The translations under genes and the position numbers were made by a program. 64,000 nucleotides of DNA from a virus, in IMG/VR virus record IMGVR_UViG_3300027797_000001, positions 50,923 to 114,922 of that record. One strand, 5' to 3'. Positions 5,542 through 39,600 of the stretch are shown piece by piece. Position 1 is the first letter of the stretch. The number at the start of each line of letters is the position of its first letter. The notes below the pieces were generated by a model. It had not been told where the DNA came from and did no database searches. It saw only the letters and a program-made list of their open reading frames with translations.

Positions 5542-5543
5542 TG

Positions 5544-12147: not shown

Positions 12148-12156
12148 TTTTGTATT

Positions 12157-18100: not shown

Positions 18101-18386
18101 TTTAGAAAGTATGGTAAATGCATTAGAGGAAATTACTTATGTTAATCCTATGGGTGGTGGTGAAGTAACTGTTGCAAAAAATACAACTGGTACATCTGAT
18201 TATAATATTTATGGAATACAATATTATATGGACAAAAATGGTCAGAAAAAATCAGAAAAATTTACACTACCTGTATTGATGTATCAAAATAATATTGATC
18301 AACTTTTTTATCAGGCTAAGCAAATGCTTAGAGAGAATGCGGAAGATTATGCTGCAGAATATAGAAGATTCCATCAAAATAAATAA
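15144..18386 (+). CDS. Virion cargo/ejection protein, function unknown
   Basis: 1080 aa ORF directly upstream of the three giant genes; helical N-terminal region; lacks the dense GG motifs. Confidence 0.7.
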   Translation: MATYIQGVTDYIPDYQPFQPDLNFYASALQTKQNQYDSNYKALNNLYGQYFYADLTRPDNIKKKDQLLKNIDFNLNRVAGLDLSLEQNVQQATQIFTPFYEDQFLMKDMAYTKNFSSSYNGALALQKSKDKETYSKYWNEGVKYMLYEREKFKKSTDEESLGFANAEYVPYKNAVETYMKLAKDMGISADITQSNGRYFVRQKNGDLILQDLSRIFTSAFANDPQLQKIAQVQAVVNREDKIRELAGKYNGDIAAAEREYLQTQNATIQEYIALKNSKNKENLKTVENKTESVNKKLEFGEGNQFTESYVKSLEKAYGIAQDNVNYSDALSNEISDDKNRTLTTAGGTSNPDDIEQLRYKVDAGTASMFAEQDIAEAAYQRSRVDMVVDISADPYGVSAQNHAFALSRQREAQAHKEFMLEQKDIKDKENLVLNAGLVNGTYIGTQQVMGADGKMHTEGIPNPALFNRRTLLDTDSGAATDGENKLVANRDKLKEVTSEYADPMIKNIVNTLNMFVKAGYLNKGDIAPMFFNGKMDANQFLKNYQDKSYGYLSGKGADYLETLYNKVTTFAMAHRGDAGVADSYLSSSSHEKFDDYVTYLRANKKLKADNAEVINKNLYSSVALSSLGLDDKMKEKLISSFYDKNSLMILSKDDFINSNKNMKVNSALHYPLSVTSPEQTDKSFSMTQKEYNTWKQNVLKLDKELFSIDPAGKFSNKLIGNVASIGDPNLRKKYNRVQQIKSDLQRMGAWNGERKIVITDHKDVNGNVKPIGVKHNGSSIWDNVSRDKEEVLSGIYDEFARNFVNTSKSREIKSVYDSPHFKGTGLASTGINGLDVSMAAPTSPGFKAYIDFMEKDMTRINLYDGKNKVSFFGANKTGVNDTEDLLDNNDAAKVTELILEHYYKNIGKKDIKPFFFGSRQIALEDKNTGAMVIKPDNQVLKELIESDTQGLITKEVQQAILKNGISIISNKNNFSNDIFKGNETTPLESMVNALEEITYVNPMGGGEVTVAKNTTGTSDYNIYGIQYYMDKNGQKKSEKFTLPVLMYQNNIDQLFYQAKQMLRENAEDYAAEYRRFHQNK

Positions 18387-21300: not shown

Positions 21301-24300
21301 ATAGAAACTTTGAGTGGATGAGAAATCTTTGGCTTAGTAGGCAAAACTATTACAAAGAAGTAATAGATAAGTCTATTAAGATGAAAGAAAATAATGATGC
21401 ATTAAGAGAATTAGCTAATCTAAATATATATGTTGATCTTGATCAATTTGCAGATTGGACAGAAAATCCAAATGCATTACCAGAATATTTTATTGATGCC
21501 AGTCAAGGGTCAGAAAGAATTATTCCAAAAGGTAGTGTGCTTTATGATAAGTATGTTAAAGTTCTTAATGATACAGCAAGAGCTCAAGAAACAAAAGCTG
21601 CTGGAGATCCAGTAGATATTAATGGTCAGCTTGATGAGGCTATAGAAGATTTAATGAATAAAAAATCTGTAGAAATTGATGAAGCAGATAAACAATTCAA
21701 AGAAGCAATTAAGGTTGAGACTACATTTACATATGACGAACTCTTACAACAAGAAGAAGACTTAAGAAAATCACAAGAGGCTGTAGTACTTACTGAAACA
21801 CAAAAGAAAGTAATTGATGCTGATATAAGTAAACTGTTTGAAAATATGCCAGCAGATGATCCTGCTGCTATATTACAACAACTTAGAAATTTTGTTAATA
21901 GAGGTGTTATTCCTGAAGAGTTTTTAAATGATGATAAAATAGTTGAGTTTAGAGATGAGTTCTTAGTTAGTCCTTCTGATGACAACATGCTTGGATTATC
22001 AGAGAAAAGAATGAAAGAAATCAAAGCTGAAGCTATTGAGTTATATAGATCTTTTCCAGAAACCTATGATGATACACAAAGAAGAGATGCAGCTGGTAGA
22101 TACATGGCAGTTTTTGAATTAATAAACAACTACTTAAATTCTACAGAAGTAATTAGTTCGAAAGAAAAACAAGAGAAAGCTAAAGAAAAAGTAGATAGCA
22201 ATATCATTAATACTACTCAAGCATATGCAGATTATCAAATTACACTTAAAGATATAGATGAGAGATATGCTGGATTATTGCAAGAGTTAAAAGATCTCTT
22301 TATTAAAAGAGGTGCATCAACTACACCTACAGAAAAAGAAATATCTACAAAATCATCATGGGCTGATATACAAAAATCTGCACCAGCGTTATACAAAACT
22401 TTGTTAGAGCAATTTAATAAAGAAGTTGTTGAAGGTATGGGTATTAATGAATCTGATGAAAACTTTGAAGGAGTTAAGAATAACTGGTTAGAACAACAAG
22501 GTGAAACAATCAACAGATATAATGTTGAAAAAGAATCTGAAAAAATTATTAAACAACAAGAGGCTAAACAATTTAAAGTACCGACATTAAAGTATTTTAA
22601 ATTACCAGCACGTATTGCAAATATAACTCCTTCATCAAGGATTAAACCATATCAAGATGTTATTTCTGCATTGAAGTTAATGTTACAAACAAAAATTGCT
22701 GTTGATTTAAAAACACAAAAACAAATAAAGCTAACAAATGAAGATTTAACAAATATTAAAAGTGATATTGTAGAATTAGAAAGATTAGTAAACTGGTTAA
22801 GTGAAAATGGAGTTGTAGAAAATGAAACTTTATTTGATGTTACGGATAATATCTTTACTGAAAAAGTAAAAAATAGAGCTGGTGAAATAGAAGAAGTAAG
22901 GGATGAGAATGGTGTACTAATTGAAAGAAGAATAGATGGTGCTCCTGCAAGAAGGGTAACTAAAGAAGCTGAGAAATTAGATATAGAAAGTACACCTGGA
23001 AAAGAAAGTTTTGTTTATGAACCTTTAAAAACAAAAACAAAGACTAAATATGATGCAGAAGGTAATGTTACTGAAGTATATGATGTACCATCACCAATCA
23101 TGTCTGCATATGATGCTATTATAGAAAGTGATGACATTGCTGATAACAAAAAGTTAGATGCTTTCTTAAAGTCATTTACTCAATGGGTGATGGCATCCGG
23201 TCTAGTATTTAAAGATAAGACAGGTAAAAAAATAAACAAAGAGAAATATGATCTATTAAAAGAATCTTTAGAACAAGATTTCTCTAGAGAGAATGTTTAC
23301 AATACTGTTGGAAGTCTAGCATTTAAACACTCATCAGATGCTGGTAATATAATTGATGATTTAATAAAAGATTTTTTAACTAGAGAAGGTACATCATTTA
23401 AAGAAATAACCAAACCTGAAAAAATGTCTAAAAAAGCATTTGATAATTTGTTTGGTAAGAATGGTGTAATTAGAAAATTTAGAGATGGTATAATTGATGG
23501 TGATTATATTATTGTTGGTGCTGGAGATTTAGTATTTGATAAAACTCTTTTTGAAAATGGTATAGTAGGTGAGACAGATTTAGTAGCTATAAATACTAGA
23601 GGTGAGTTACAAATTATTGATATTAAAGCTCTTGGTTCTGGAAGTTGGGCTATATTTAATTCTGATTTGGAATTAAATAAAAAAATTAACGCTCTTAAAA
23701 AACAGGGGTTAACAGATCAAGAAATTGAAAAAGATTCTGATGTTGCTCTAATAAAACGAAACTTATTAAAAAGTAAAAAGCAATATTATAGAATTCAACA
23801 ATCTATTTATAGAAACTTAATCTGGAGAATGACGGGGATTAAACCTACAAGAATTGGTTTAATGGCCTTAGAGGTAGATGTAGATACTGAAGGCAATATT
23901 AATAATGCAAACATTTCAAATATAGTTCCTAAAGGAGAAAGCACACTTGAACTAGAATACTTCCCTGGTGTTGAATCAATTGTTCCAGAACCTGAAGTTA
24001 CAAGTCAACCTACAAAAGGTCTTGTTTCTGAAATAACAGAAGAAGAATTTAATGATTTTGTTAACAACGGTGTTGTTTCAGAAGATAGACTTAATTCTAT
24101 TGCTAATAAGATTAAAAATAATCAATCATTAACAACTCAAGAAACTGCAATATTCAATGATAAAACTTCTGAAGTAAATGCAAAAATTCAAGAAATATTT
24201 ACTTTAGAAGATAATCCAGAAAGATCTAACGTTGTAGCTGATAATGTAAATCAACAAATCATTTATAATGGTAGGGTTGGAACACTTAGACTTGTAGGTA

Positions 24301-26102
24301 ATGTTTACACTATATTTTATAGTGATGGCACTGGTGGACAGTTATTATATAAGCAAAATGCATTAACTGATGGAAGTGTAAAACTAGATGAGATAGGTGC
24401 TATTCTTCCAACAATAATTACAAATGTTGGACAAGTTAAAATTATTAATGGTAAAAAAATAGATGCTGAAATAATCAGTGAGTCTAGAGTTAGGATTAAT
24501 CGTGTATTCTATAGAATAAACAAAAACAAACTTGGTGCAGTATCTTCTATGTCATATCAATCTAATGATGCAGAAATAAATGAACTAGAAGACGAGATCA
24601 AAATTTATAAATCTGAAATACAAAGATTACAAAAGGAGAATGCTCAATTGTTATCTAAAACAAAATCAGATAGTTACAAAAGTCAAATTGCAAAGTTAAC
24701 TACGCAAATAGAAACTGCGCAAGAAGAAGCTAAAGTAACAGAGTCTCTTTCTGAAAGAGCTAGATTAGAAAGTGAATTATATGATTTAAATAATCAACAG
24801 AATTCAAACATCAGAACCATTGCTGATTATAACACAGAAATTGAATTAGTAAATAGTAGGATAGAAGATCTTAAACAATCTAATGAATCTGTTAAAATTA
24901 CCAGTGGTAATTTAAATGATCTTATTGCCGCATTAAATCTTCTACCCGGAAGCTTTAAGTTCTATGCAGGTAAGACAGCTCAAGATCAGAAAAAAGATTT
25001 AGCTTCTATACAGGGTAAATCAGTTACCCCAAATCTTAGTCAAAAGATAACTGAGATTATGGAGAAAGATTTCCCTAATGCATATAATAAACTTATTGAC
25101 TCTGGTGTAACTGCAATATCATCTGAAGAACTTAATACTATAAAAGATTGGACAAATAAAACAATTGAAGAGTTATCTGCTTTAGGTACTGCAGAAGCAA
25201 TTGCTAATAATCTTACTGATGAATTAGATAATCAGATCAATGTTTTACAAGGAATGTTAAATGACTTAGAATTAATTAAATTAAATAAAGATGGAAGCAT
25301 CAGTAAAAAACCGCAAACAGCAGCAAGCAAAGTCTTTGGACCTAAAAAAATATCAGACGGGACTGGTATATCTTCGCCTGTCAAGCCTACCAGTGAACAA
25401 ACAGAAGGAATTTCTGTCGGAGAAGGAACAAAACCAAGACAAGGAACAGTAGATGAAGCTAAAAAATCTTTAGAGGAATCATTAGCTATATCTGCTAGTT
25501 TATCAGGAATCAATGTATCAATGCAAATTAAGTCAACTAAGCAAGCTGACAAGTTAATTGATAAAATGAGAAATGCTAATACAGAACAAGAGCTTAATGA
25601 TGCATACTTTGAAGCATTAAATTATCTAAGTAATAATCCTGGAAAAATTGATCCAAACATTATTGCTAATACATTTACTGCAGTAACAGAAGAGAAAAAC
25701 TTTAATGATGAGAATCCAACTCCTACTTACGAATCTATTAAGAAAGGAACATATTTGATGCCTAAAACACCTATGTTTAAAAATGAAAATCCAAGTCCGG
25801 TAGAAATTGTTAGAAAAGGACCTAAAGCTATTGTTATAAAAGACATTAATACTAATGAGTCTATGAATATAAAACCAGAAGATTTGTCTAAATTTGTAAC
25901 TATGACAGAAGAAGGATTAAAGCAATTGGGTGGAGTGGAACTTACTCAAGAAGACATTAGAGAAATAGAAGAAAATGCACAAGTAATTGCAGATACTCTT
26001 GAGAATACAGCTGAGTTAAACAAAGCTGCAGATGAAGTTAAAAATGCTGAGACAAAGGGTAGCTTCAGAGATAGATTGAAAAATAAAAATTGTAATATTT
26101 AG
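18387..26102 (+). CDS. Giant virion ejection protein with Gly/Ala-rich hydrophobic segment, coiled coils and a PD-(D/E)XK nuclease-like domain
   Basis: 2571 aa. GAIEGAIVGSIEPGAGTAAGGVIGGAIGGAVG at about 19130-19230. GETDLVAIN...IIDIK...YRIQQSIY at about 23560-23810. First of three giant genes, as in crAss-like phages. Confidence 0.75.
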   Translation: MDMAENENLDVTGRAEFLRKGTTELNDFLPFGGEQINTQNNLFAQNPQRPPIQIESPNSDPQKPTIQKDYIQDNGPGIMPYSSNQLANTSQQRTQARLKKLQNAAYSLEDNSQYSKPFMYDSTATGAHKAKYKGYGQRTYDRIGFSPLVNNEEIFINNTSIADDFIRTATNSFFPMVGQGLIANPKSYAQLFQGNIGQDYDQSEDYEEYSNIGYSSRGGPLAFINNVFNSLGYSAGVMFEAGAEMALEGAIEGAIVGSIEPGAGTAAGGVIGGAIGGAVGVARGLFALPKSLFNMGKYGGKMLSSLKNAEKFTEAKNLFNTAVKSTANFVNPVNNTLTAYKEYDNLTGLARASRTAGGFFRDVIGMNAALSEGRLEGGFVENKTYERSYDEFWKKFNRAPDDKEQLELRKRSKIAGFQDTWKNGMLVFYSNKLAFPNLFGNKLFSKMSRTVGEIGNEFDLVYQAGKKGIQEGSYELVDYNIKNALKGFIKPANFGKASLMYFKTNLVEGTQEVLQDVLADATEEYYVNSYFDPTKANFDYSMSTLGNAFGHQVSEQGFETFMSGFVMGAFLKPVSGVPRFATIQYNKMKMTPEEYKTYTNDRKTYGEQVKNAMNKMHKNPVDFLNDRMVNYGNQSIISKKLADDETDEKEMWDGVNASFLSDVITTLRAGTFKVWLSNFEKYNQMSDKDLEDTLSLKGGEGQKMRETMSNYVSKAKKIQARYDEGQNTFGKRMIPLTNLKEGSPEYEKAQIYNKALERGLYNLTFLGETFDLNLERINAMTQKLGSLDAIKNLPGADFQTLLDHERLTNNIKILQTEIETLKQTGDQAAVTQAEKKERLLTKLQKFQDTQIDYLTLKKATESLELLKREAKAAGKKANIEDLEVAKEIIDYYKKNGKNPKKDHKKAFEELLKDLSGSDVNFMKMMRQLKANDGMRDLFTKLTDIYDLTLENKNIVPYVTTLTDPDGFYEHVNRNFEWMRNLWLSRQNYYKEVIDKSIKMKENNDALRELANLNIYVDLDQFADWTENPNALPEYFIDASQGSERIIPKGSVLYDKYVKVLNDTARAQETKAAGDPVDINGQLDEAIEDLMNKKSVEIDEADKQFKEAIKVETTFTYDELLQQEEDLRKSQEAVVLTETQKKVIDADISKLFENMPADDPAAILQQLRNFVNRGVIPEEFLNDDKIVEFRDEFLVSPSDDNMLGLSEKRMKEIKAEAIELYRSFPETYDDTQRRDAAGRYMAVFELINNYLNSTEVISSKEKQEKAKEKVDSNIINTTQAYADYQITLKDIDERYAGLLQELKDLFIKRGASTTPTEKEISTKSSWADIQKSAPALYKTLLEQFNKEVVEGMGINESDENFEGVKNNWLEQQGETINRYNVEKESEKIIKQQEAKQFKVPTLKYFKLPARIANITPSSRIKPYQDVISALKLMLQTKIAVDLKTQKQIKLTNEDLTNIKSDIVELERLVNWLSENGVVENETLFDVTDNIFTEKVKNRAGEIEEVRDENGVLIERRIDGAPARRVTKEAEKLDIESTPGKESFVYEPLKTKTKTKYDAEGNVTEVYDVPSPIMSAYDAIIESDDIADNKKLDAFLKSFTQWVMASGLVFKDKTGKKINKEKYDLLKESLEQDFSRENVYNTVGSLAFKHSSDAGNIIDDLIKDFLTREGTSFKEITKPEKMSKKAFDNLFGKNGVIRKFRDGIIDGDYIIVGAGDLVFDKTLFENGIVGETDLVAINTRGELQIIDIKALGSGSWAIFNSDLELNKKINALKKQGLTDQEIEKDSDVALIKRNLLKSKKQYYRIQQSIYRNLIWRMTGIKPTRIGLMALEVDVDTEGNINNANISNIVPKGESTLELEYFPGVESIVPEPEVTSQPTKGLVSEITEEEFNDFVNNGVVSEDRLNSIANKIKNNQSLTTQETAIFNDKTSEVNAKIQEIFTLEDNPERSNVVADNVNQQIIYNGRVGTLRLVGNVYTIFYSDGTGGQLLYKQNALTDGSVKLDEIGAILPTIITNVGQVKIINGKKIDAEIISESRVRINRVFYRINKNKLGAVSSMSYQSNDAEINELEDEIKIYKSEIQRLQKENAQLLSKTKSDSYKSQIAKLTTQIETAQEEAKVTESLSERARLESELYDLNNQQNSNIRTIADYNTEIELVNSRIEDLKQSNESVKITSGNLNDLIAALNLLPGSFKFYAGKTAQDQKKDLASIQGKSVTPNLSQKITEIMEKDFPNAYNKLIDSGVTAISSEELNTIKDWTNKTIEELSALGTAEAIANNLTDELDNQINVLQGMLNDLELIKLNKDGSISKKPQTAASKVFGPKKISDGTGISSPVKPTSEQTEGISVGEGTKPRQGTVDEAKKSLEESLAISASLSGINVSMQIKSTKQADKLIDKMRNANTEQELNDAYFEALNYLSNNPGKIDPNIIANTFTAVTEEKNFNDENPTPTYESIKKGTYLMPKTPMFKNENPSPVEIVRKGPKAIVIKDINTNESMNIKPEDLSKFVTMTEEGLKQLGGVELTQEDIREIEENAQVIADTLENTAELNKAADEVKNAETKGSFRDRLKNKNCNI

Positions 26103-26105
26103 GAA

Positions 26106-29100
26106 ATGGCTTGTTTATTAAATGAGAAAGATGTACTAGACATCTATAGTGATATATATGAGAATTTTTTAGAAGTACTTGATTCTAAATCTAAGACACC
26201 ATTTAGTCCTATAGATTATATTAAGACAATGCATTCTGACATTGCAGAGAATAATGATCCAAAGTTTGCATTAGAAGTAGTTCAGGCAATCCCACAAATC
26301 ATGTTGCAAGTAATTGCAACTAGAGGAGATGTTAGAAAATATATTGCTCTTAATAATATTGATACTAATTCTTTAATTAAGTTATCTGTAGACTTTGAGA
26401 AAATTGAAAATGTAAAAAAGTTTATAGCAGGTAAGATGCCATCTTTGTCTGATGTTAAATCTAAGATAGCTACAAAGAATAAATCTGATAAAGAAGTTAA
26501 ATTAAAAAATCCAGAAGATACATCTGAAAATAGTGATAATAAAGTATCTAATACAAAAATAGAAGATCCTTTAACATCTACATTTCAATATGCAAAAGCA
26601 GTTAATCCTGACACAGCTACAGAAGAAGAGTTAGAGCAAAGAGATCCTGAAAAAAATACCACACACTCTGTAGTAAAACAAATCATTGGTCTATTTGATA
26701 ATAGACCTGCAAATAGTGATGAAGTTATCTATCAAGGTACATCAGTTGCTTTAAGACCTATGATGCTTAACATGGTTCCTAAAGAACAATTGTTTAGTGA
26801 TGATGCAAAATTTTTAGAAGAAAATCCAGAATATAATGGGATAGTAGTTATTATCTCAGATGTTGATGGTAATATTTTAAACTTTGATGAAGATGGTAAC
26901 TTAGTTGATGATGGTAAAATTGCATATCAGTATTTAAGAGATTTAGAATTAAAAAATTCAAAGATCTCTTTAATGAATAGATCAGGATATAAGTATGAAC
27001 TAGTAAGTGCAGAACAAACTTTAAAAGCTGAAGACAAAAAAGAAAAAGAAAGGAATGGTCTTGGAATGTCTCAGAAACAAAAAGAAAATAGACTCATAGA
27101 AATTGAAAATGAGCAAAAACAAAAAATGAATGATCTATATAGAATCAGACAGTTTGTTATGCGTAATCCAGAAGAGGTATTTACTTTAAAGATTATAGGT
27201 GGCTCATATGGTAATTTTAAAAATAAGTTTATACCACTTTCAGAAACTGGATTAAATTTAAATGAGATTACATTACCTATTGCTGCAGGTCCGCAAAAAG
27301 GTTATATAAAGGTTAGAATTAAAACTAAAGGTGCTGGTGGTTACATAGATCACTATGTCTTATTACAAAGAGGGGATGTAACTTCAGAGATAGCAGATAA
27401 GATAGCTACAATATTAACTACTGATGCTGTATATAGAGGAAAACCATTATCAGATCTTGCTAAATATACATATGCAAATGTATTTTTAGATAATGCTATT
27501 GAAAAAAATAACATTAGAATAGATCTAAAAAAAGTTAATGGATTTAATGAATTACAAGTTTCTATCAAAGGAGAGAAGGTTGATTTAGATTCACCAACAG
27601 CTTTTGATGAAATTAAAAATCATTTACTTAAAGCGGTAGAACTAGGGAGTAAAACATATCCTGCTAATTTAAATTACAATAAAGATTTAATTGGAGGATC
27701 TTTTACTGATTATATAATTAAAGATGGAAAAGTAAGCACTAGAAAACAAGATTACTTTGAGTTTATTAAACCTTATATGAAAATTGAGTTTAGTAAATTA
27801 TCTGGAGGCTTCTTTATGAATAGTAATTCATATCTACAATTTGCGGTTCCAGAAGAAATTTTACCACCTAGTAAAAGAAATTATAGTTTAGCATCAACTA
27901 CATCTACAACAAATAAAGTAAAAGAAGTAGAAACACAAGATGTTGAAGATGAAGAAAGTGTAGATGTAGAACCAGGTGAGGTAGTATACAATCTTAAAAA
28001 ACAAGTTGGGTACGCACTTGCTACAGAGAATGCACAGAATACTGATGTAACATTAAACATTGCTGTTAATTTTGAACAGGGAGAAGCTAAGATTGCAAAG
28101 AGAAGTGCAAAGAATCATGTTCCAGTTACACTTAATAAAAAAAGATCTACACAAAAAAGCTTTGGTAATTTAACTACCATAGCTGGAAATGTAATTAAAC
28201 AACTAAATAGATTCAAGTCAGATACATTAAATGTAGCAGGTAATGATATTGTTACATCTATATTTAATGGTTATACACAACAAGATCTTGATCAGTTTAT
28301 GAATCAGTTATTTGAAAGAATAGTTAATTCAGATAGCTTAATTACTCCAATTAAAAAGATTGTAACTACTGGTGAATCAGGAGTTCCTGAATCAGCAATT
28401 AAGGCAGCTAAGAAAAATGGAATTGGTGTTGAAATTACTGTACCTACAGGATGGACTTTCTTTGTCTATAGAAAAAATAGTGCAAATAAAAAATACAAAA
28501 TATCAAACCTTGAAGAATTTAAGGCAAGATTTGGGGATGCTAAAGTAAAGACAACAGCTAAAAGAAAAACTAGTAGTACTATTAATAAAACTAAAAGTAA
28601 ATTTACTAAGGCTAAAACAACTAGTAGAAAGACAACTCCTAAGAAGACTACTAAACAAGCAAATAAGAAAGTAGATACTCAATTAAATAAATCTGCAATA
28701 AGCACACAGTTTAGTTTATTATCTAGACTTGGTGAAAGAAGAGAGTTATTTAAAGGAGACAATGACGAACTTAATAGATTAGATACTTTAGAAAGAAAAG
28801 TGGGTAATTTCTTTGAGAGATTATTTACTACTAAAGCTCAGAGAGATTCTATTTATAAGTGGTGGGAAACTCATCCAATGTCTAAGCATGTTCCTTTAGA
28901 TATTATAACCGGGATTGTTAATTCTGATGCTTTTGCAACTTGGAGCCAACATGGTATTACTTTGCACTTAGCAAATAATGCTACCCCTATTGACTTATGG
29001 CATGAGGCATGGCATGGATTTACTCAGTTATACTTAACTCCTGAAGAAAAAACTAAACTCTATGATGAGATTAGAAAAACTCCAAAGTTTGAGAATGCTA

Positions 29101-32100
29101 CATACTTTGATATAGAAGAAGTATTAGCAGAAGATTATAGAAACTATTTGAGAGATAATACTTTATTTACAGGTTTTATCGGAACCATATATAAAAAGAT
29201 CAGAGATTTTTTAAGAACAATGTTTGGTAAAATTACCAGACAAGACATGACAAGACCTAGAGATATTGCCATTGTTAAAGAGTTATATGATAAACTATAT
29301 AGGGGTGATATACTTGATCTAGAACCAAGTATGGATAACATTATGTTTACTAAACTTAATAGATCTAGTAAAACGATTAACTTATTACAATCACAAGAAG
29401 AAAAGTATTCTCCATTTAGCCCTAAAGAAAGTGACCACATTCTTAAAATGTTTGATACTCTCGTAGCAGATAATATCAAATATTACAATTCCAAAAATAA
29501 TTCTAAGGCTGGTGTAGTTAGACTCTTTGCAGATAAAGATCTTAAAACAAAACTTTATTATTCAATAAAACAACAGTTTGCAGACATGGTCAGTGAGCTA
29601 ATGTCAGAATATAAAACATTAGCATTAGCAAATAGTGATGACCCAGCTATACCGGAACTACAAGCTAAAATAGATTTATTAATTAAAGCATTAGATAATT
29701 TTGGAAACATAGATGCTGCAATTAATGACAAGAATGTAGGTGGTGTAATAGGATATATTGTAAAGAAATCTAGATTTAATCAAATTCAAGAAGAAGTAAT
29801 TGAAGATCCCAATGATCTTGAAAACACACGTGTACTACAAGACTATAAGGGTAATGTAATTAATCCTAAGAACCTTGCATCTCCTACCACCTTAGCTCTT
29901 ATATCTACAACATTTAAAGTTGAGAAAACAGAGGACGGACAAGTTCTTCCTGTGTTAGATTATTTTGGACTTCCTCAACTAGAAAATCTTGATGATATAT
30001 GGAATAAATTAGCTAAAGTTTTAGCAGGTTCATTTGACTATACAGAGATGTATCAGAGATTGACAGACAGTCTTGAAAATTATCCTGAGTTTCAAGATAT
30101 ACTAGATTCATTAAGAAGTCCTTCTGATTATGATTTTAAAGATAAAACACAATGGAGGTTAGAAACTAACTTTTGGCAAGACTTTAAAAAGCCAAGAGTT
30201 CCTTTTTTACAATATAATATCAATAAGAATATTGTAAAGAAAAAACAATTAGATGAAGAAACTGGAAGAGAAATATCTCCTGAAGTTGCAAATTATGAAA
30301 GTGTAGTTACTAATGCAAGCTTTGCCATTAATTCTGTAATATCTGATTGGAAATTTAATTTCATTACTAGCACAAGAGATATTAATCCATACATAGATAT
30401 TCAAGATAATCAAGTCTTACTTGATACTGGTAAAATAATTCAAAAGTTTTCTGATAGAAATGGAATTTTTACAGATAGTAAATCAAGAGAATTTTTGGAA
30501 GCATTAGGTATCTATATGGATAGATCAAGTGCTGAGATAAATGCAATCTTTGCTGATCCTGTAAAAGTTTCAAATGCATTTTTCTTACCATTTATGTTTG
30601 ATGTAATTAAGCTTGTTGACAAAGCTTCTCAAACAACAGATGTTGGTAAAGTTGCAGCTGCTGAGAAATTTAAAAGTGATCCAGTTACATATTTGTTGAG
30701 AGGTTTAGGTGGTGCTGATACTAAAGCATTAGTAGAAAATGATGCTGCAAAGTATGATGTTGCTTCCAGGATCAAAGCTTTAGCTACTTTGCAAAATGCA
30801 TACTCTGATGGCTATTCTAATTTTAGTGTACTTACTCCAGAAGGTAATCGTGTTTGGGAGCAAGTAGTTGATAATACAATCACAAGAATTGTTACAGCTA
30901 TTAACAAAGCTGAAGATTGGCAACAACTTACTAATGCAGCATCAGATCCTGATAATATGTTCCAGCATATGCGTTGGTTAGGGAATGAAAATAATCCATA
31001 TAGTAAACACTCAAAACTTTTAAACTCCATATTTATATTGGATGTAGAGGAATCAGATCCATCATATGGTGCAAAGAGAACAAAGATAGAAGGTGGAAAT
31101 TCTGTTCCAATTCAATTAAAAATAAATAACATCGGTGGTACTCAGCTTATTGTAAACAATGAGAATGATGGTACAGGAGCTTCTACAGCTTCATTAGATG
31201 CAACTAGTAAGTTTTTACAAGAGATGCATACCATGTTATTAAATGGTATTGAAGAATTCATGAGGCACGCATCTAAAAATACTGCAATGTCTTTGAAGCC
31301 AGATGAAATAGAAACATATCCTGAAAAAACTGATAAACATTTATATGTAGATATTGATCTATTTAGTCCTAAATATCAAGGTCTTGGTGAGACAGAAGCA
31401 TTTGAAATTATTCTTGGTTATATTGCTGGAGAATTAGAAAGGGTAAATAGATATAAAAACAATGATGATTATAAACAATATAAAGGTTATAACAGAGAAG
31501 TTTATGATGACCGTGGTAAGGTTGTAGATGCTGGTTCTGTATTTACTGCATTTGATGATGTATTAAGTACCAAGGTAAAAGATGAACTATATAAAATAGA
31601 AGGAGATTTATTTGAAGCATTAGATAATAACCCGGATCTTAGACAAAGAATAGAGAATGATGTAACAGAATATTTCCAAAAAGAAACTGAAGCTAACTTA
31701 GAAAGATTAGAATCTGCAAGATATGTAGATGCAAATCTTTTTGATAAAACTTTAGATCCATCATTAACTCAAGCACAAAGAGATGAAATACTTGTTAAAG
31801 CCTACACGTATAATTCTTGGATACATAAATTTGAAACACTAATCTTAGCATACGGGGATCTTGTTCAATATGATCATAGTAAAGAAGAGTTCCATAAAAG
31901 AAATGCTGGATTAGGTTCAGGTGGTAGAGGATTTAGATCAGATGTACAAGCTATACAATACATAAACTCTTTAACAAATGTTTATGCTGACAAATATGGA
32001 TATACTCTTAGACCATATGATGGTACTCTGAGAACAGCCATAATGAAAGAAAAGAAAGTTAAAGAGTCTATTTACTATAAAGAATATCTTAAAGAACTTA

Positions 32101-35100
32101 CTGATTCAATAAATAAAAGAATTAAGAATAAAGTAAAAGCTGCTGAGATGGCAGAAACAGCTTTAGGAGAATATTTAGGTATGAAAGAGGGTGATGGTCA
32201 AGGTCATATCACTCTTGAAGCATACAGAAACTTAAAAGAACTTGAAGGTAAGTGGACAGATCAACAGGAGTTACTTTATTTAAAAGTTGCTAATGGAGAA
32301 ACTATTACTGCAGAAGATGTAATTGAATTCTTTCCTTCTTATAAATTACAATACTTTGGTGCAATAGATAGTGAAGGTTTGGCTATAACATCGTTCCATA
32401 AGTTCTCATTAGCACCTATTATTCCATTTACGACTGCTTCTAATAGCTATTTAGAGAAGCTGAATAAAAAAATGATGGAGCAAAATATAGACTATGTAAC
32501 ATTTGAAACTGGTTCTAAAGTATCTCACATTGGATCTGGAGATGTAGTAATTGATGAGAATGGTAATTTTAATGATGATGTTGTATTTACAGAAAATAAA
32601 ATCTTTACAGAATTCTTAAAGAATCAGACAGAAATTAATTCAGTTTATAAAGGAAAAAGTATATTCTCTACACAGTTAAGAAAGCTTATTCTTGAGGGTC
32701 TTTATGAAAAAGGTGTAATAGACACTACAGAGGAAGATAAAATTACAGATCCAAGAGTTAGAAAATATCTTAAAGATGTTGCTGAATATAGTGAGACATT
32801 AAGAGTTGAACTATTAGAAGAAATTGGATTTGAAAAAGAAGGAGATAAATATATTCCTAAAAATAAAGATAGCATAACTAAACTTACAGAACTCATTAGA
32901 GAGAATCTTACAAAAGAAGATGTAGTTGGTGATCATCTTATAGATATTATAGATGTAACAGATAGCGGATCACTTGCTTTTGACTTATCTATACATCCAG
33001 AAGCAGTTAAAATTGAAAAACTTTTAACATCACTTATTAATAAAAGACTAATTAAACAGCAGTTTAATGGTGAGCCTTTAGTACAAGTATCCGGTGCTTT
33101 TTATACAGATGCATTTGGATTAACTGAGGGCAAATTTAAAAATGCTTCAGATGAAGATCGTAAAAAATGGATGGGTTCCAATGTTTTACCTACATATCAT
33201 AAAAAGAAAGATGGCTTTACAGCTGCAATGAAAGTTGCTATTGCATTACAAGGTGATTATACCAACTTATTAAACTTAGAATATAAGGGTAATGTTATTG
33301 GAGATATAGACACATTGAATCTAGCTATTAAAGATGATGAATGGTTAGATGCTAATAATGGAGCTAACAGAAAAGCAATAACAATGGTTGCAGTTAGGAT
33401 TCCAGTACAGGGTCTAAACTCTATGGAGTTCATGGAAGTATATCATTTCTTACCACCACAAGCAGGAAATATTATTGTTCCTCCAACAGAAATAGTTGCT
33501 AAGTCAGGAGCTGACTTTGATATAGATAAGATGACTATTTATATGAACAATATAAATGAGGATGGTACAACACCAGAAAGATTCTTTGAAAATATAGAAG
33601 AGCTAAAAGATTATTTAAATGATCCAGAAGTATCAGATGATGAGAAGTTTCTTGCAATGAAATCTCAAAAACAATACTTACAAAACTCAATCATTAACAG
33701 TATGAAAGAGCTTTTAGAGTTACCTCAAAACTATGTCTCATTAATTACTCCTAATGGAACTTTCTTAGTTAAAGAACTAGCTGATGAATTATCACAGTAT
33801 GTTATGGACTATAATCCATTTAATGTTAAAAATGGAAAGGAAAGAAAAGATGTTAAAACAGGTAAAAAATCTATTAGTCCAACCAGAGTTCTAGAGTCAT
33901 TATATAACTTATATAAGCATGAGTCAAATGTAGTAGGTAAGAATACTTTGGGTCTTGGTGCTGTAGAAAATACATTCCATACACTTATTAATTCTGTAGA
34001 GACAGCGGGTGGAGTTGCAATGCCAGATAGCTTTATGCATGGTAAAGAAAAAGATTTAAGAAAATCATTACTTTGGTTAAGACACAACATAACTAAAAAG
34101 AATGGTAAAGAATTAATATCTATTGCAAGTAGGTATGATGTAGATGGTATAAATAAAATTGCAGATATTATATCTCAGCTTATGAACGGCTGGGTAGATG
34201 TTGAGAAAGAGGCCTGGGTATTCTTTGTTCAAGGAAACTATGAAGTAGCACCTATACTACTTTACTTACTTAAAACAGGAGTACCTGTAGATGAGGCTGT
34301 ATACTTTGTATCTCAACCATTAGTAAGAGAGTATGTAAAAGAACAACGTCTTGCTAAATCTACTTTTGCTGATGTATTAGGTAAAAAACCAGACTCAAGA
34401 AACTTTGTAAGATATCAAGCTGCGTCAGAAGTATTGCTAAATGCTTTACCAAAAGAAATGCATTCTAGTGTATCTAATAACAGAAAGAGATATGAACTTG
34501 GTTTAGAACTTGCAGAAAGAATCTTTAAGTCAAAGAAAGAAAAGAGCTTTACAAAAAAACAAATGCTTGATCTTATTACACAGACTAAAAAGAAACCGGA
34601 GACCGCAAACTCAGGATTATCAATTGCAATGTTCTTACACTATCTACAGATAGAACAACAAATTACAGGACTTACAGAACTTAAAATGGCAGCTAATCCA
34701 GATACATCTACAGATGCTACGGCAGGAGAAGCAGAACAAAGTCTTGCGCAAATTGAAAGAGTAAAGACTAATACTAAAAATGAAGACTATTTATTTGATG
34801 CATTAAAAAATGACTCAATTATTAGCTCACTATTTAACTATGACTTAATTCTTTCACTTAATGAGATGATGTTCCCATTAAGATATAATAGAGCTATCTC
34901 TGATTATCTAATGGCTAAGTCTGATGTTTTAAGAGAAGACTCTCAAATGATTTTTGGAGAAAATAAAACTGATGTATTTATGAATACATTCAGAAATGAT
35001 ATTATTAGTTTCTTATTTCAACAGGCAGCTAGAAAATTCAAGCTTGGAGATTCTTATAAATCATACACTCTAAAAAAATCTGTACCAACTAAATTAGTAG

Positions 35101-36632
35101 ATCAGTTAAAATTTGGAGCATTTGTTAAAAAAGATCCATCAGGAGTTACTACTATGTATATAGACCAGGCAGCTATTGAAAATGACTTTGATAGAGGTAT
35201 ATGGATTAATACATCTGAGGATCAAGACAGTTATATAAACAGAGGTTTATATCCACTTACTGAAGCACACTTTCATTCAAATGTAACTACCAACAAAGAT
35301 GAGTATGTGAAATTTGTTACTGAAAGAGAGTATTTAAGATCTATTTATCCTAAGTCAGAGATAACTAAAACAATTCAGTTTGAAGAAGAATTAATAAATG
35401 TTAAAGGAGAGAAACCAGACTTATCTGAGGCTAAAGCAGAAAGCTATACTTATGAGAAAATCTTAGCAATTAAAGCTCTAGAAAATACATTAAATCCATA
35501 TCACATGTTTAATGATCCTGTATATGCATATGCTGTACAATTCAATAAGCTAATGGAAAAATATGGAGAGATTAAAAAACAATATTCTTTACTTAATAAA
35601 TTAAAGCCTGAGCCTAATAAAGCTAAAAATATGTTTAATCTTTATGTGGCTGAAAAAGACTTTACAAATGATTCTTCTAACTTGTATTATGAAAATTTAC
35701 AAGAGCTTTCAAATCCAGCAATTAAAAAAGTTGTTGATGAAAGACAGAATCAAGAGATAAGTGATTTCTTTGGTAAGTTATCTATGTATGCATTTATGCA
35801 GACTGGTATAAATAAGACCAAGTTTAATTTTAATAACATAGTGGATTTTAAAGAATACATGTATTTAATTAATGATGAGATAGCTACTTTTACTAAGGCA
35901 TTAGAAAATTCTAAAACTGCAAATAAATTCTTAGATGATTTTTATAAAAGATTTGTTTCAGAAAATTCTAAAATAAATAAAGACCGTGGTAGATATAAAA
36001 ACTATCTCTTTAATGTAAGCATGACTGAGTTAGCAAAAATTGCAGATGTTGATACTAATGGTCTTACATTAACAGAAAGATATAAATTAATGGAGAGTAA
36101 AGAAGAGGGGCAATTTATATACGATAATATTAAGGCTACTCCAACAGATTATAATCTAATGCTTAGTAGAAATGAAGATGTTACTTTTGCATATCCAGCT
36201 CCCGTAGTTGTATTGCAAGGGCAGTCATCTGGAATTGGAGACTCTGTAATTAGAAATATATCTAAAGAAATGTCAGTAGGTTTTGCTACATCATTGCTTG
36301 TAGATTCTGATGCACTAACTGAACTAGAGGCAGAGGATTATGAAGCAATTAAAAATTCATATGATGCAGCAATTGAAAGACTATTAAACTTAAAGAAAGA
36401 TGGTAAAATGATTGCCTTCCCATTAAAAGGAATTGGTAATGCAGCAGCCATGCCTCAAGAATTATTCGTATATTTATCTAGAAGATTATACCAAGAATTT
36501 GGGTATCTAAATCCGGGCTCTACTATGTATAAAGAAATTAGTGAATTAGTTGGAGAAAAACAAGGGATATCTGATGCTGAGATATTAGCAGAACTTGGAC
36601 TTGAAGAAGATCCTTTTGCATGTAAAATTTAA
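26106..36632 (+). CDS. Virion-associated DNA-dependent RNA polymerase, crAss-like (two-barrel), with accessory zincin, SLOG-like and macro-like domains
   Basis: 3508 aa. RIPVQG..SM (33396) followed by GADFDIDK (DFDID at 33513-33527), the DxDxD variant known from phi14:2 gp66 and crAss-like virion RNAPs. HEAWH at 29001-29015. Confidence 0.9.
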   Translation: MACLLNEKDVLDIYSDIYENFLEVLDSKSKTPFSPIDYIKTMHSDIAENNDPKFALEVVQAIPQIMLQVIATRGDVRKYIALNNIDTNSLIKLSVDFEKIENVKKFIAGKMPSLSDVKSKIATKNKSDKEVKLKNPEDTSENSDNKVSNTKIEDPLTSTFQYAKAVNPDTATEEELEQRDPEKNTTHSVVKQIIGLFDNRPANSDEVIYQGTSVALRPMMLNMVPKEQLFSDDAKFLEENPEYNGIVVIISDVDGNILNFDEDGNLVDDGKIAYQYLRDLELKNSKISLMNRSGYKYELVSAEQTLKAEDKKEKERNGLGMSQKQKENRLIEIENEQKQKMNDLYRIRQFVMRNPEEVFTLKIIGGSYGNFKNKFIPLSETGLNLNEITLPIAAGPQKGYIKVRIKTKGAGGYIDHYVLLQRGDVTSEIADKIATILTTDAVYRGKPLSDLAKYTYANVFLDNAIEKNNIRIDLKKVNGFNELQVSIKGEKVDLDSPTAFDEIKNHLLKAVELGSKTYPANLNYNKDLIGGSFTDYIIKDGKVSTRKQDYFEFIKPYMKIEFSKLSGGFFMNSNSYLQFAVPEEILPPSKRNYSLASTTSTTNKVKEVETQDVEDEESVDVEPGEVVYNLKKQVGYALATENAQNTDVTLNIAVNFEQGEAKIAKRSAKNHVPVTLNKKRSTQKSFGNLTTIAGNVIKQLNRFKSDTLNVAGNDIVTSIFNGYTQQDLDQFMNQLFERIVNSDSLITPIKKIVTTGESGVPESAIKAAKKNGIGVEITVPTGWTFFVYRKNSANKKYKISNLEEFKARFGDAKVKTTAKRKTSSTINKTKSKFTKAKTTSRKTTPKKTTKQANKKVDTQLNKSAISTQFSLLSRLGERRELFKGDNDELNRLDTLERKVGNFFERLFTTKAQRDSIYKWWETHPMSKHVPLDIITGIVNSDAFATWSQHGITLHLANNATPIDLWHEAWHGFTQLYLTPEEKTKLYDEIRKTPKFENATYFDIEEVLAEDYRNYLRDNTLFTGFIGTIYKKIRDFLRTMFGKITRQDMTRPRDIAIVKELYDKLYRGDILDLEPSMDNIMFTKLNRSSKTINLLQSQEEKYSPFSPKESDHILKMFDTLVADNIKYYNSKNNSKAGVVRLFADKDLKTKLYYSIKQQFADMVSELMSEYKTLALANSDDPAIPELQAKIDLLIKALDNFGNIDAAINDKNVGGVIGYIVKKSRFNQIQEEVIEDPNDLENTRVLQDYKGNVINPKNLASPTTLALISTTFKVEKTEDGQVLPVLDYFGLPQLENLDDIWNKLAKVLAGSFDYTEMYQRLTDSLENYPEFQDILDSLRSPSDYDFKDKTQWRLETNFWQDFKKPRVPFLQYNINKNIVKKKQLDEETGREISPEVANYESVVTNASFAINSVISDWKFNFITSTRDINPYIDIQDNQVLLDTGKIIQKFSDRNGIFTDSKSREFLEALGIYMDRSSAEINAIFADPVKVSNAFFLPFMFDVIKLVDKASQTTDVGKVAAAEKFKSDPVTYLLRGLGGADTKALVENDAAKYDVASRIKALATLQNAYSDGYSNFSVLTPEGNRVWEQVVDNTITRIVTAINKAEDWQQLTNAASDPDNMFQHMRWLGNENNPYSKHSKLLNSIFILDVEESDPSYGAKRTKIEGGNSVPIQLKINNIGGTQLIVNNENDGTGASTASLDATSKFLQEMHTMLLNGIEEFMRHASKNTAMSLKPDEIETYPEKTDKHLYVDIDLFSPKYQGLGETEAFEIILGYIAGELERVNRYKNNDDYKQYKGYNREVYDDRGKVVDAGSVFTAFDDVLSTKVKDELYKIEGDLFEALDNNPDLRQRIENDVTEYFQKETEANLERLESARYVDANLFDKTLDPSLTQAQRDEILVKAYTYNSWIHKFETLILAYGDLVQYDHSKEEFHKRNAGLGSGGRGFRSDVQAIQYINSLTNVYADKYGYTLRPYDGTLRTAIMKEKKVKESIYYKEYLKELTDSINKRIKNKVKAAEMAETALGEYLGMKEGDGQGHITLEAYRNLKELEGKWTDQQELLYLKVANGETITAEDVIEFFPSYKLQYFGAIDSEGLAITSFHKFSLAPIIPFTTASNSYLEKLNKKMMEQNIDYVTFETGSKVSHIGSGDVVIDENGNFNDDVVFTENKIFTEFLKNQTEINSVYKGKSIFSTQLRKLILEGLYEKGVIDTTEEDKITDPRVRKYLKDVAEYSETLRVELLEEIGFEKEGDKYIPKNKDSITKLTELIRENLTKEDVVGDHLIDIIDVTDSGSLAFDLSIHPEAVKIEKLLTSLINKRLIKQQFNGEPLVQVSGAFYTDAFGLTEGKFKNASDEDRKKWMGSNVLPTYHKKKDGFTAAMKVAIALQGDYTNLLNLEYKGNVIGDIDTLNLAIKDDEWLDANNGANRKAITMVAVRIPVQGLNSMEFMEVYHFLPPQAGNIIVPPTEIVAKSGADFDIDKMTIYMNNINEDGTTPERFFENIEELKDYLNDPEVSDDEKFLAMKSQKQYLQNSIINSMKELLELPQNYVSLITPNGTFLVKELADELSQYVMDYNPFNVKNGKERKDVKTGKKSISPTRVLESLYNLYKHESNVVGKNTLGLGAVENTFHTLINSVETAGGVAMPDSFMHGKEKDLRKSLLWLRHNITKKNGKELISIASRYDVDGINKIADIISQLMNGWVDVEKEAWVFFVQGNYEVAPILLYLLKTGVPVDEAVYFVSQPLVREYVKEQRLAKSTFADVLGKKPDSRNFVRYQAASEVLLNALPKEMHSSVSNNRKRYELGLELAERIFKSKKEKSFTKKQMLDLITQTKKKPETANSGLSIAMFLHYLQIEQQITGLTELKMAANPDTSTDATAGEAEQSLAQIERVKTNTKNEDYLFDALKNDSIISSLFNYDLILSLNEMMFPLRYNRAISDYLMAKSDVLREDSQMIFGENKTDVFMNTFRNDIISFLFQQAARKFKLGDSYKSYTLKKSVPTKLVDQLKFGAFVKKDPSGVTTMYIDQAAIENDFDRGIWINTSEDQDSYINRGLYPLTEAHFHSNVTTNKDEYVKFVTEREYLRSIYPKSEITKTIQFEEELINVKGEKPDLSEAKAESYTYEKILAIKALENTLNPYHMFNDPVYAYAVQFNKLMEKYGEIKKQYSLLNKLKPEPNKAKNMFNLYVAEKDFTNDSSNLYYENLQELSNPAIKKVVDERQNQEISDFFGKLSMYAFMQTGINKTKFNFNNIVDFKEYMYLINDEIATFTKALENSKTANKFLDDFYKRFVSENSKINKDRGRYKNYLFNVSMTELAKIADVDTNGLTLTERYKLMESKEEGQFIYDNIKATPTDYNLMLSRNEDVTFAYPAPVVVLQGQSSGIGDSVIRNISKEMSVGFATSLLVDSDALTELEAEDYEAIKNSYDAAIERLLNLKKDGKMIAFPLKGIGNAAAMPQELFVYLSRRLYQEFGYLNPGSTMYKEISELVGEKQGISDAEILAELGLEEDPFACKI

Positions 36633-36636
36633 AAAA

Positions 36637-39600
36637 ATGGTTTGTAATTCTAAAGAAAACTCTATTCAATATTTAGTATCAAAAGGTGCTATAAATGATG
36701 TTAGAAAAGTAATTGATAGAGACTTATTTGATAAGTTAAATGACAGTTTAACAAGGTATGCTGAGACTAAATATGGTCTTGATACTATGGGTGCACAGTT
36801 GTTTACGGCAGCTACAGAACAAACTAGATATTTAAAAGATACTCCAGCATATAGAGAATCCACATATTCTATTAAACGGGCAGTTCCTAATGAGGTATTA
36901 TTTCAAAGACTAGATCAGTTAGTTACACAATATGAGAACAGATCTGATACAGATCAATCTATGTTTAATAGACCTTTAGAACTTGAAATTAATGCAGATA
37001 TAAAAGAAGTATTTGCAGCTTTCCCTAGACTTGCTTCAGTTGGAACATTAGATCAATATAGAGAATACTTAAATTCAAGACTTACATTTCCAAAAATATT
37101 AGTTCATGCAACAGTAGTTCCTTTTGAAACTTTTGATGAGGATCTTACAACAATGAAATCAAAAGATTTGGGTTCCGGTTTATATGTCTCTGATCTTAAA
37201 AATAATTGGTCAAAATATCAAGAACAAAATAAACGTAATATATCAAGACAATTAAGAAATAATTTTGAAGATGCTCTTGAAGATTATTTTGACATGTCAA
37301 TTGACGATATAAATGATAAATATTTTAAAAGGGTAGAGTCAAAGTTTATAAATCCAATATCTAAACTTAAACAATTACTTGATTCTCGTTCAATTAATGC
37401 ATTTGAATTTAATGATCAATTAAAAACTATTGAAGTTGCTAGACAGTATGAAATTTTTAGACTTGCAATTGGGGATATAAAAAGTAAAAAAACTAAAGAG
37501 AGATTGTCAAAACTACTTGATAAAGTAATAACTCCATTTGCTATTTTAGATAAACCAATTAATCAATATTATGGATATACTGGAAACAGTATAAAATATG
37601 TTAAAGATGGATATTTAGAACTTAAAGGAAATGAAAAAGAATCATTGATCATTGAAGGTACAGTGAATGATGTTAAACAAGCTGTTTTAAAAAATCCAAA
37701 AGATTATTTTGTTTTAGGTACTAACCCAGATATAAATGCATTTAAAGAGTTTGTTGCTACAACAAAAGATATGCCTATGATGATGAGAGAATCATCAAAA
37801 ATTACACAAGATGATAAAAGTTACTATAGAGGTCAAATAGAAAAACCTTTTATTGATAAAGACGGAAACTTAATTCTTTTTGGTAGAGAAGATGAGCTTT
37901 ATAAAAAAGCAGGTCTTAAAAGTTATGGCATATCAATGACAGATAATTTAAAAACTGCTGTTGGATATGGAGAAGGTCAATTTGAACGTGAAAATCTATT
38001 ATTTGATGATGTATGGGGATATGACGTAAATACATGGGAAGCTGAGGATGCTTACAATGAACTTCAAGAAAACGGATGGTGGTTAATTCAAATTCCTAAA
38101 AATATTAACTATGAGATAGTTAAAGAAGCTGGTGAAGTTAAAGTTATTGGGAATAAAATTATTGTACCAAAAGGTCAATATAAAATTCAACAGTTTGCAG
38201 ATAATGTAAAAGAAACAATAGAAACAAATGATTTTGATTTACCAATTTTTAAATTTGATGCAGCAACAATTGTAAATGCAAGATCAAAAGAAGTAGCTAC
38301 AATTTTAGCTAACAGACTTGCATTAGGTTTAAAAGTTAATTACTATAATATTACAGAAGCAGAGGCTCGAGATATTCTTAAAAATAGTAAGATACCATAT
38401 CAAGGTGAGCCAGCATTCTTTTTTGCGGGAACTGTTTATACTGTAGGAGATAATGTAAACTTAAATACAGTACTCCATGAATTCTCACACCCATTACTAC
38501 AGGGAATAAGAAAAACTAACAAAGGGAAAGAGCTATTTAATAAATTATATGCGCAGTTAGATGGTACTACAGAAGGAGATGCAATAGTTAATCACTTAAA
38601 AGCAGAATACCCGGAACTTGAAGAAGGATCAGATAGATTTAAAGAAGAAGCTTTAGCTTATGCACTACAATTGCGTGCAGTAAACTTGGTAAATAATAAA
38701 ATAGAGTCTGAAGGTTTTGATAAATTTATTAAAAACTTATTATATCAAATCAAGCAATTCTTAAAATCTATATTTGGCAACAAAGTAAATGTAGCCAAGT
38801 TAGATGTAAATACTTCTTTAGAGGAACTTGCAGACATGCTTCTTGAAAAAGATTTCATTTATGATACTGATAAAATAACATATGATGATCTTGTAGCTTT
38901 TGCAAGATATACAAAAGCAAGGGTGGATTTTCTCACTAAAAATGCAAGTAAAAATGCAGTTACAGACTCTATTAATAGTTGGTATACATCTACTAATGCA
39001 GTTTTAGAAAGAGCAAAAAATTTTAAGGGTAATAAAGTAACAAGAGAAATTGTAAAAAATAGTTTACTTAGAAAAGGAACTACTGAATTAACTCCTGGAA
39101 TTAAAAGATCTCTTTCTGGATATCAAACAATTAATAAAGGAAGACAACAATCTGTTGATGAAGTTATAGAGGGTGCAATAAATGCTGAAGAACTTAGAAT
39201 TAAAGATCTAACTAACAGATCAACTGCATTTGTAAGCTCATTAGAAATTACAAATAATTCCATCAAAGAAATTGAAAATGAATTAAAGTTACTTCAGAAA
39301 AAGAAAAATTTTGGTGGAAGATCTGATATTGCATTACTCGGTTTATATGAGAGTTCATTAACAAGATGGTATAGAAGTATATCAGATGTTTATGACATAT
39401 TAAAGAGTGACTTTAATATGACAACGGATAATCCTTTTTCTAGACTTTTAAATGAAATGTCTACAAACATTAGTGAGTCACGAAAAATTATTATTGATCT
39501 TTATAGAAAGAATACTAAGTATTTATTTGTTTCAATTACTGGTTACATGTCAGACTTTGTTAAAGATGAATTAAATACTGAGCTTGGAAAAATCTTAAAA

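Follow-up and report, generated by a model that had tools for sequence, protein, structure and literature searches.

No phages are more abundant in the human gut than those of the order Crassvirales. The delivery of their giant RNA polymerase (RNAP) has been described as an open question, as has, in a 2026 paper on phage N4, the relation of three crassvirus proteins to the domains of the N4 virion RNAP (PMC13434306). In crAss001 the proteins gp47, gp49 and gp50 were found in the virion by mass spectrometry, and the tail and portal vertex of the same virions contain several disulfides between subunits (PMC10172136), so that such bonds can form in crassvirus particles. The corresponding RNAP block of phi14:2 consists of g067, g066 and g065, where gp66 is the protein of PDB 6VR4 (preprint 10.1101/2020.03.07.982082). 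The ejection proteins of N4-like phages (Schitoviridae), which include a 3,500-residue virion RNAP, lack cysteine almost totally, which has been explained by their transit through the periplasm (PMC11445570). In the cyanopodophage A4 (Anabaena phage A-4L), cryo-electron microscopy revealed gp27 with its C-terminal helix lodged in gp26 and held there by a disulfide between Cys1715 and Cys5 (PMC12002296, PNAS 2025). Herein we analyze a window of 64,000 nucleotides (nt), positions 50,923 to 114,922 of the IMG/VR record IMGVR_UViG_3300027797_000001. This virus record, 114,922 bp long, has direct terminal repeats, and the window forms its right part. Three consecutive giant proteins encoded in this window, gp1, gp2 and gp3, contain cysteine only at the ends that face one another, and we propose that these residues join the proteins head to tail, probably by disulfide bonds.

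Positions given below are those of the window unless a locus is named, and negative residue numbers are counted from the C-terminus. All three genes are on the plus strand, at 18387..26102 (gp1, the first link, 2,571 residues), 26106..36632 (gp2, the middle link and virion RNAP, 3,508 residues) and 36637..43770 (gp3, the last link, 2,377 residues). Together the proteins have four cysteines in 8,456 residues, all of them at junction-facing ends. The sole cysteine of gp1 is residue 2569 (-3; codon TGT at 26091-26093), gp2 has cysteines only at residues 3 (TGT at 26112-26114) and 3506 (-3; TGT at 36621-36623), and the sole cysteine of gp3 is residue 3 (TGT at 36643-36645). An earlier note on this DNA had read the end of gp1 as KNKNCNI, the two ends of gp2 as MAC and DPFACKI and the start of gp3 as MVC, and had seen no cysteine at the outer ends of the trio (MDMAE... 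in gp1 and ...GERVR in gp3), all of which is borne out exactly; its wording that there is almost no other cysteine was too mild, as the count gives none. Cysteine accounts for 1.22% in the rest of the genome, and among the 75 other open reading frames (ORFs) only one has a cysteine in the first five residues and five have one in the last five. The pattern is highly non-random and is not due to chance.

At the nucleotide level, junction 1 (26091..26114, plus strand) reads TGT AAT ATT TAG GAA ATG GCT TGT, or C-N-I-stop, a 3-nt spacer and M-A-C, and junction 2 (36621..36645, plus strand) reads TGT AAA ATT TAA AAAA ATG GTT TGT, or C-K-I-stop, a 4-nt spacer and M-V-C. The genes for gp1 and gp2 share a frame and are separated only by TAG GAA (26100-26108), which looks like coincidence rather than recoding because relatives use all frames and the single tRNA of the genome is Arg-TCT. 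The start of gp3 at ATG 36637, already assumed in the earlier note, is backed by the approximately 110 of 120 homologues that begin M-x-C, and an alternative upstream start (TTG 36595) is used by two gene calls only. Many gp1 homologues start MAENEN, and gp1 may begin at its second ATG (18393), which leaves the cysteine finding unaffected.

The terminal cysteines singled out in the earlier note are kept among homologues. We obtained relatives from large protein collections and a profile scan. The 318 homologues of the three proteins comprise 78 of gp1 (24-100% identity), 120 of gp2 (39-95%) and 120 of gp3 (42-97%), for which the N- and C-ends were taken as the first and last 10 residues. Cysteine is present at the C-end of all 78 gp1 homologues and at the N-end of none, at the N-end of 118 of the 120 gp2 homologues and at the C-end of all 120, and at the N-end of 110 of the 120 gp3 homologues and at the C-end of none. 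Internal cysteines number 2 in 192,259 residues for the gp1 family, 2 in 421,771 for the gp2 family and 10 in 263,343 for the gp3 family, hence 14 in about 877,000 residues, and the three families retain the pattern down to 22-40% identity. In a gp1 alignment that extends to 22% identity only 48 columns are invariant, and C2569 is one of them. The gp3 exceptions for the most part occur on short contigs or deviate at the called start alone, and so look like truncated contigs or wrongly called starts. A full HMMER pass with the last 1,200 residues of gp2 against 1.84 billion representatives gave 1,293 matches, and among the matches listed the full-length representatives of 50% clusters have the C-end cysteine in 116 of 116 cases and the N-end cysteine in 108 of 116.

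A profile scan of IMG/VR identified 80 loci that share this gene order, of which 69 are non-redundant. In the non-redundant loci cysteine is found on both sides of the gp1-gp2 junction in 59 of 59 evaluable cases and on both sides of the junction between gp2 and the next protein, again in 59 of 59, and an N-terminal cysteine is absent from all 50 complete gp1 proteins. Two junctions could not be evaluated and are broken genes, the true N-terminal fragments of which still begin MAC or MVNC. Here the N-terminal part of gp3 or gp2 is severed as a short ORF (L055:20833-21645 and L080:9550-9743; MACNSREN..., MVNCSLSQ...), and these are frameshifts or assembly errors, not true losses of cysteine. 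Across the relatives the spacer at junction 1 varies from -1 to 18 nt, in all three frames, and that at junction 2 from -10 to 29 nt, with the C-side cysteine at -1 to -10 and the N-side cysteine at 3 to 8. The junction sequences co-vary, as acidic ...DDLxC ends are always paired with MK[ILV]xC starts, a correlation that is confounded by phylogeny.

Judged from the sequences of other crassvirus architectures, the terminal-cysteine rule follows the breaks between proteins and not the domains or the DNA. In crAss001 gp47 has a cysteine at -3, gp50 at 5 and -9, and gp49 at 5, a pattern that is kept although gp47 is encoded on the plus strand and gp50 and gp49 on the minus strand. The colinear three-protein form of phi14:2 has cysteines at -1 in gp078, at 3 and -2 in gp077 (6VR4) and at 3 in gp076. 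Some families have fused proteins. In the Intestiviridae (p-crAssphage, crAss002, cr271, cr3 and cr11) protein 1 ends in cysteine (-1 or -2), and modules 2 and 3 are fused into a protein that starts MSC and has a C-end devoid of cysteine. In the Suoliviridae (cr118, cr60, cr52 and cr7) modules 1 and 2 are fused into a protein with no cysteine at its N-end and one at -1 or -4 of its C-end, and the protein that follows starts M-x-C. The fused junctions themselves (1-2 in Suoliviridae and 2-3 in Intestiviridae, not mapped residue by residue) show no cysteine pair. The first break also moves. In the phage described here it precedes the zincin-1 motif by 966 residues, and it follows this motif by 184 residues in crAss001 and by 200-550 in the Intestiviridae. 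The pair stays at this break although the position of the break shifts relative to the conserved zincin-1 domain. The zincin and DFDxD motifs are separated by about 1,500-1,700 residues in every genome except cr271, where the distance is 2,291. The annotated start of crAss002 gp33 (L007:11948-12046) is MVLDYS..., and residues 33-35 are MSC, the start of all other Intestiviridae examined; the sequence suggests that the true start is probably 32 codons downstream of the annotated one.

Additional breaks carry additional cysteines. Four loci have a small extra ORF of 242-655 residues between gp2 and the gp3-like protein (L066:19587-20315, L077:19920-20678, L080:22077-22862 and L094:21939-23906), and each contains exactly two cysteines, at 3 and -1. 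By their sequences these small proteins look like plug-in links. They share the pattern MAC[IK]..IKED ... [IV]LK[NS][IL]C, have no Pfam match and are followed by a short gp3-like protein. At another locus (L038:20710-29246) a homing endonuclease gene of the GIY-YIG/NUMOD3 type (21952-22545) separates the head (396 residues) of a split gp3 homologue from its body (2,232 residues). Compared with P0228, a homologue that is not split, the two parts have identities of 94% and 99%. The C-end formed at the split is ...DCG and the N-end is MAC..., and the body has gained a new 196-residue N-terminal module that starts MAC. From these comparisons the split is a recent one and came with a new cysteine pair. 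A second candidate for a moved break, L095 (7386-26531), was rejected. Its ORF of 6,381 residues has only two cysteines (5 and -1), holds a full gp2 and carries a second RNAP-core-like region, with a profile match at residues 5251-6052, and is either a tandem duplication of the RNAP core or an assembly artefact.

We propose that the terminal cysteines act as pairs, a C-end with the next N-end, that join consecutive proteins head to tail. Comparative sequence data strongly support such pairing, because the inner ends have one cysteine each and the outer ends have none, fused junctions show no pair, and added links have a cysteine at both ends. In the mechanism that we favor, the C-terminal segment of each protein would dock on the N-terminal domain of the next, and the paired thiols would form an intermolecular disulfide to give a virion chain, gp1-S-S-gp2-S-S-gp3, of about 8,450 residues. 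In function such a chain would correspond to the one fused polyprotein encoded by some crassviruses. Ejected phage proteins are often free of cysteine, and in this trio the loss of every other cysteine would guard against mispairing. The tether would set both a 1:1:1 stoichiometry and the order of the cargo in packaging and ejection, and tight gene spacing would favor equimolar synthesis. Reduction in the host cytoplasm could then release the polymerase. We consider this explanation as a whole, a covalent disulfide chain with ordered cargo and reductive release, to be likely. The head-to-tail tether put forward in the earlier note, by disulfides or a shared metal site, stands on firm comparative ground as far as the pairing of C-ends with N-ends is concerned, and the disulfide as the chemistry of the crassvirus pairs is probable by analogy with A4. 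Exit as one thread, the direction of exit and reductive release are what we infer from such a chain. A complex predicted from single sequences only between the C-end of gp2 (residues 3380-3508) and the N-end of gp3 (residues 1-110) received a score close to zero, which speaks neither for nor against binding.

Several points weigh against a disulfide chain. In any crassvirus the bond is deduced from sequences and by analogy. Phages assemble in a reducing cytoplasm and most crassvirus hosts are gut anaerobes, hence it is questionable when and where oxidation would take place. No thioredoxin or glutaredoxin gene was detected in this genome, and a search for Erv1/Alr matched no control genome and is hence uninformative on this one. 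The disulfides of crAss001 and A4 come from aerobically purified virions, and A4 gp26-28 are without sequence similarity to gp1-gp3 by BLASTP and profile searches (E <= 0.01), which makes the precedent one of analogy. Moreover, gut crassviruses tolerate 5-15 internal cysteines in these proteins, and in the fused protein of cr273_1, the only exception found, the last cysteine is 50 residues from the end. In this virus (L014:18900-19160) a low-complexity acidic extension comes after the last cysteine and the next protein still starts MFC; in cr273_1 TAG is a sense codon, and it occurs 36 times in frame in the gene of the fused protein.

The pairing logic would be fitted as well if the paired terminal thiols bridged a metal ion (Zn, Fe or Cu), in a clasp possibly common to two or more chains that would form readily in a reducing cytoplasm and the anoxic gut, and some Suoliviridae C-ends do have a histidine beside the cysteine (HCKGE, HCKKS). 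However, each junction offers only two thiols, near which no additional Cys and no His or Asp is conserved between lineages, avoidance of disulfide scrambling accounts better for the complete loss of other cysteines, and the sole solved analogue, that of A4, is a disulfide. We regard such a clasp as unlikely. The cysteines might also be unpaired, each binding a third partner such as the portal, the capsid interior or a host factor, or acting as a redox sensor or stability signal. The contact between termini is proposed from the sequence pattern, and a few upstream cargo proteins do have unpaired near-terminal cysteines (p-crAssphage gp47 at -2 and crAss002 gp30 at -8). This reading leaves unexplained, however, why the outer ends lack cysteine (0 of 78 gp1 N-ends and 0 of 120 gp3 C-ends), why the two cysteines are lost jointly on fusion, why inserted links have one at each end and why both are found at the new split, and in our estimation it is slightly less likely still than a metal bridge.

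Other covalent chemistry, such as a thioester-mediated peptide ligation yielding a true polyprotein, is very improbable. A cysteine near the N-terminus and one at the extreme C-terminus are the groups that such chemistry needs, and a fused polyprotein is encoded by some crassviruses (preprint 10.1101/2020.03.07.982082), but the N-side cysteine is at position 3-8 and not at 1, no intein-like or ligase domain was found in Pfam and PHROGs scans of the three proteins, and the A4 analogue is a plain disulfide. Bayfield et al. list the three crAss001 proteins by separate masses (PMC10172136), which probably already contradicts ligation. Finally, a by-product of a nucleotide-level signal at the junctions (translational coupling, in-frame TAG readthrough from gp1 to gp2, or a processing site), suggested by the similarity of both junctions as DNA (TGT AAN ATT TAR ... 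ATG GNT TGT) and the shared frame of gp1 and gp2, can be dismissed, since crAss001 keeps the pattern with gp47 on the strand opposite gp50 and gp49 and its genes are not co-linear, relatives have spacers of -10 to 29 nt in all frames with cysteines anywhere from -1 to -10 and 3 to 8, and the sole tRNA of the genome, Arg-TCT, is not a suppressor.

The disulfide chain may be extended, much more tentatively, to a modular terminal-cysteine code. Any protein of the form M-x-C...Cys would be stitched at a defined place into a covalent chain, possibly with extra enzymes, and would leave the virion as part of one thread of up to about 1 megadalton. The thread would then be cut by host cytoplasmic reductants, which would switch on the injected RNAP, and the trio would be the disulfide-stitched equivalent of the single-chain virion RNAP of N4. 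We find this possible, with the odds somewhat against it.

The identities of the three proteins are in keeping with a role as ejected cargo. The virus record is, judging by its genes, that of a crassvirus because it encodes, upstream, proteins matching Crass_capsid (PF23898, E 2.6e-29) and the muzzle crAss_MUZ (PF25731, E 4.5e-18). A series of large plus-strand ORFs is present downstream of the muzzle gene, with gp1, gp2 and gp3 as the final three. The phage represents a divergent lineage, having no DNA match and only 25-30% identical protein matches in the phage collection. DNA and protein searches of that collection with the junction regions gave no match, nor did scans of IMG/VR for close relatives with two C-terminal pieces. 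Pfam and PHROGs recognized almost nothing in the three proteins, only a LysM domain in gp3 (residues 2047-2089, 42775-42903, plus strand) and one unnamed PHROG in gp2. By homology gp2 is a virion RNAP of the two-barrel DFDxD type. Its catalytic DFDID motif (residues 2470-2474, 33513..33527, plus strand) is within an invariant SGADFDIDK (residues 2467-2475), its core matches the RNAP genes of 90 Crassvirales records (tblastn), and the profile of its family matches phi14:2 gp077 (E 2e-13 and 1e-11), the solved virion RNAP of PDB 6VR4. Direct sequence and profile searches of the PDB with gp2 gave no match, and the link to 6VR4 runs through phi14:2. The zincin-type motif of gp2, HEAWH (residues 966-970, 29001..29015, plus strand), is invariant in the gp2 alignment, and the region around it aligns to residues 2135-2204 of crAss001 gp47 (BLASTP E 3e-5, profile E 3e-12). 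A second zincin motif, HEFSH, is present in gp3 (residues 614-618, 38476-38490, plus strand). A region of the gp1 profile matches crAss001 gp47 at residues 1577-1872 (E 2e-25), and the N-terminal domain of gp3 is homologous from residue 1 onward to phi14:2 gp076. The three proteins are probably packed in the capsid and ejected, because their homologues were found in crAss001 and phi14:2 virions by mass spectrometry; those of phi14:2 are annotated as structural proteins from tandem mass spectrometry.

The giant proteins of relatives carry variable enzyme inserts according to precomputed Pfam assignments, among them Zeta_toxin/AAA_33 kinases (PF06414, PF13671) and GNAT (PF00583), with PF18760, PF25176, PF12694, FtsK_gamma (PF09397) and PDDEXK_1 (PF12705) as further inserted domains. 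A role as carriers of injected effectors agrees with these inserts. The rare internal cysteines are mostly within such variable insert regions.

Directly upstream of gp1 is a cysteine-free protein of 1,080 residues (15144..18386, plus strand), which belongs to the context and is not a link of the cysteine chain. It is kept in related loci as MATY[IL]QGV..., with no cysteine in nearly all of them and two in two loci, and three of the five upstream cargo-like ORFs are likewise free of cysteine. Among such neighbors a 975-residue ORF (12157-15084) has all of its eight cysteines in residues 649-690, as CPC/CPC/CPC/CxxC repeats, and by its sequence this cluster, also present in L071, looks like a small metal-binding knot. 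The termini of the upstream cargo-like proteins (457-15084), the only parts viewed, have similar tails, …GG..L....[IL]K.[YL].K.G[FY].[FI]E.I or …GGEIEYL, and basic heads such as MAKYRI, MTKKKVRIYK and MYHRVRIKK.

Full-text literature searches found no paper that deals with cysteines at the ends of crassvirus cargo proteins. The preprint version of the Drobysheva study (10.1101/2020.03.07.982082) and Bayfield et al. (PMC10172136) do not use the word cysteine, and the supplement text of the latter has no reduced versus non-reduced data for gp47, gp49 and gp50. A conserved terminal-cysteine exception in ejected proteins that are otherwise purged of cysteine is a new aspect, and a multi-link chain that includes the virion RNAP and is kept across the order is a new form of a mechanism seen once, in A4. 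For the field it is a concrete hypothesis, a rule readable from sequence that predicts which cargo proteins join and in what order, and it is cheaply testable on cultured crAss001 and phi14:2. The rule accounts for the fusion of these proteins in some lineages and their separation in others, and it suggests a redox switch that releases or activates the polymerase. It also gives annotators a simple way to recognize chain members and to choose correct start codons, as in crAss002 gp33.

As to the known systems, the trio resembles the ejection proteins of N4-like phages, which likewise comprise a giant virion RNAP and proteins ejected with it and lack nearly all cysteine. Those proteins differ in that they are reported without any cysteine, and hence have no terminal pairs, and in that their virion RNAP is a T7-like single-subunit enzyme in one polypeptide, whereas gp2 is of the two-barrel DFDxD type and keeps two terminal cysteines, which places it outside the N4-like group. 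With the crassvirus RNAP block the agreement is close: this genome has the crass capsid and muzzle, a giant DFDxD protein and a zincin HExxH motif in a flanking module, and the trio shares with crAss001 gp47/gp50/gp49 and the phi14:2 block homology, the DFDxD RNAP, the zincin motifs, the module order and the terminal-cysteine rule. It differs from the cultured crassviruses in its divergent lineage and in having the first break on the other side of the zincin domain. The A4 pair is the nearest counterpart in the design of its ends, as gp27 (1,717 residues) and gp26 (1,114 residues) are likewise consecutive giant ejection proteins that are free of cysteine save for a lone one at -3 of gp27 facing a lone one at residue 5 of gp26. 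A4 is, however, a T7-like podophage with a pentameric pre-ejectosome, has one link and not two or more, and has no RNA polymerase in it, and its authors treat the disulfide as a local detail and not as a rule (PMC12002296). By analogy, then, the likeness to A4 is one of mechanism and not of family, and if the chain proposed here is real, the single disulfide of A4 becomes a recurring design principle of phage ejection machinery.

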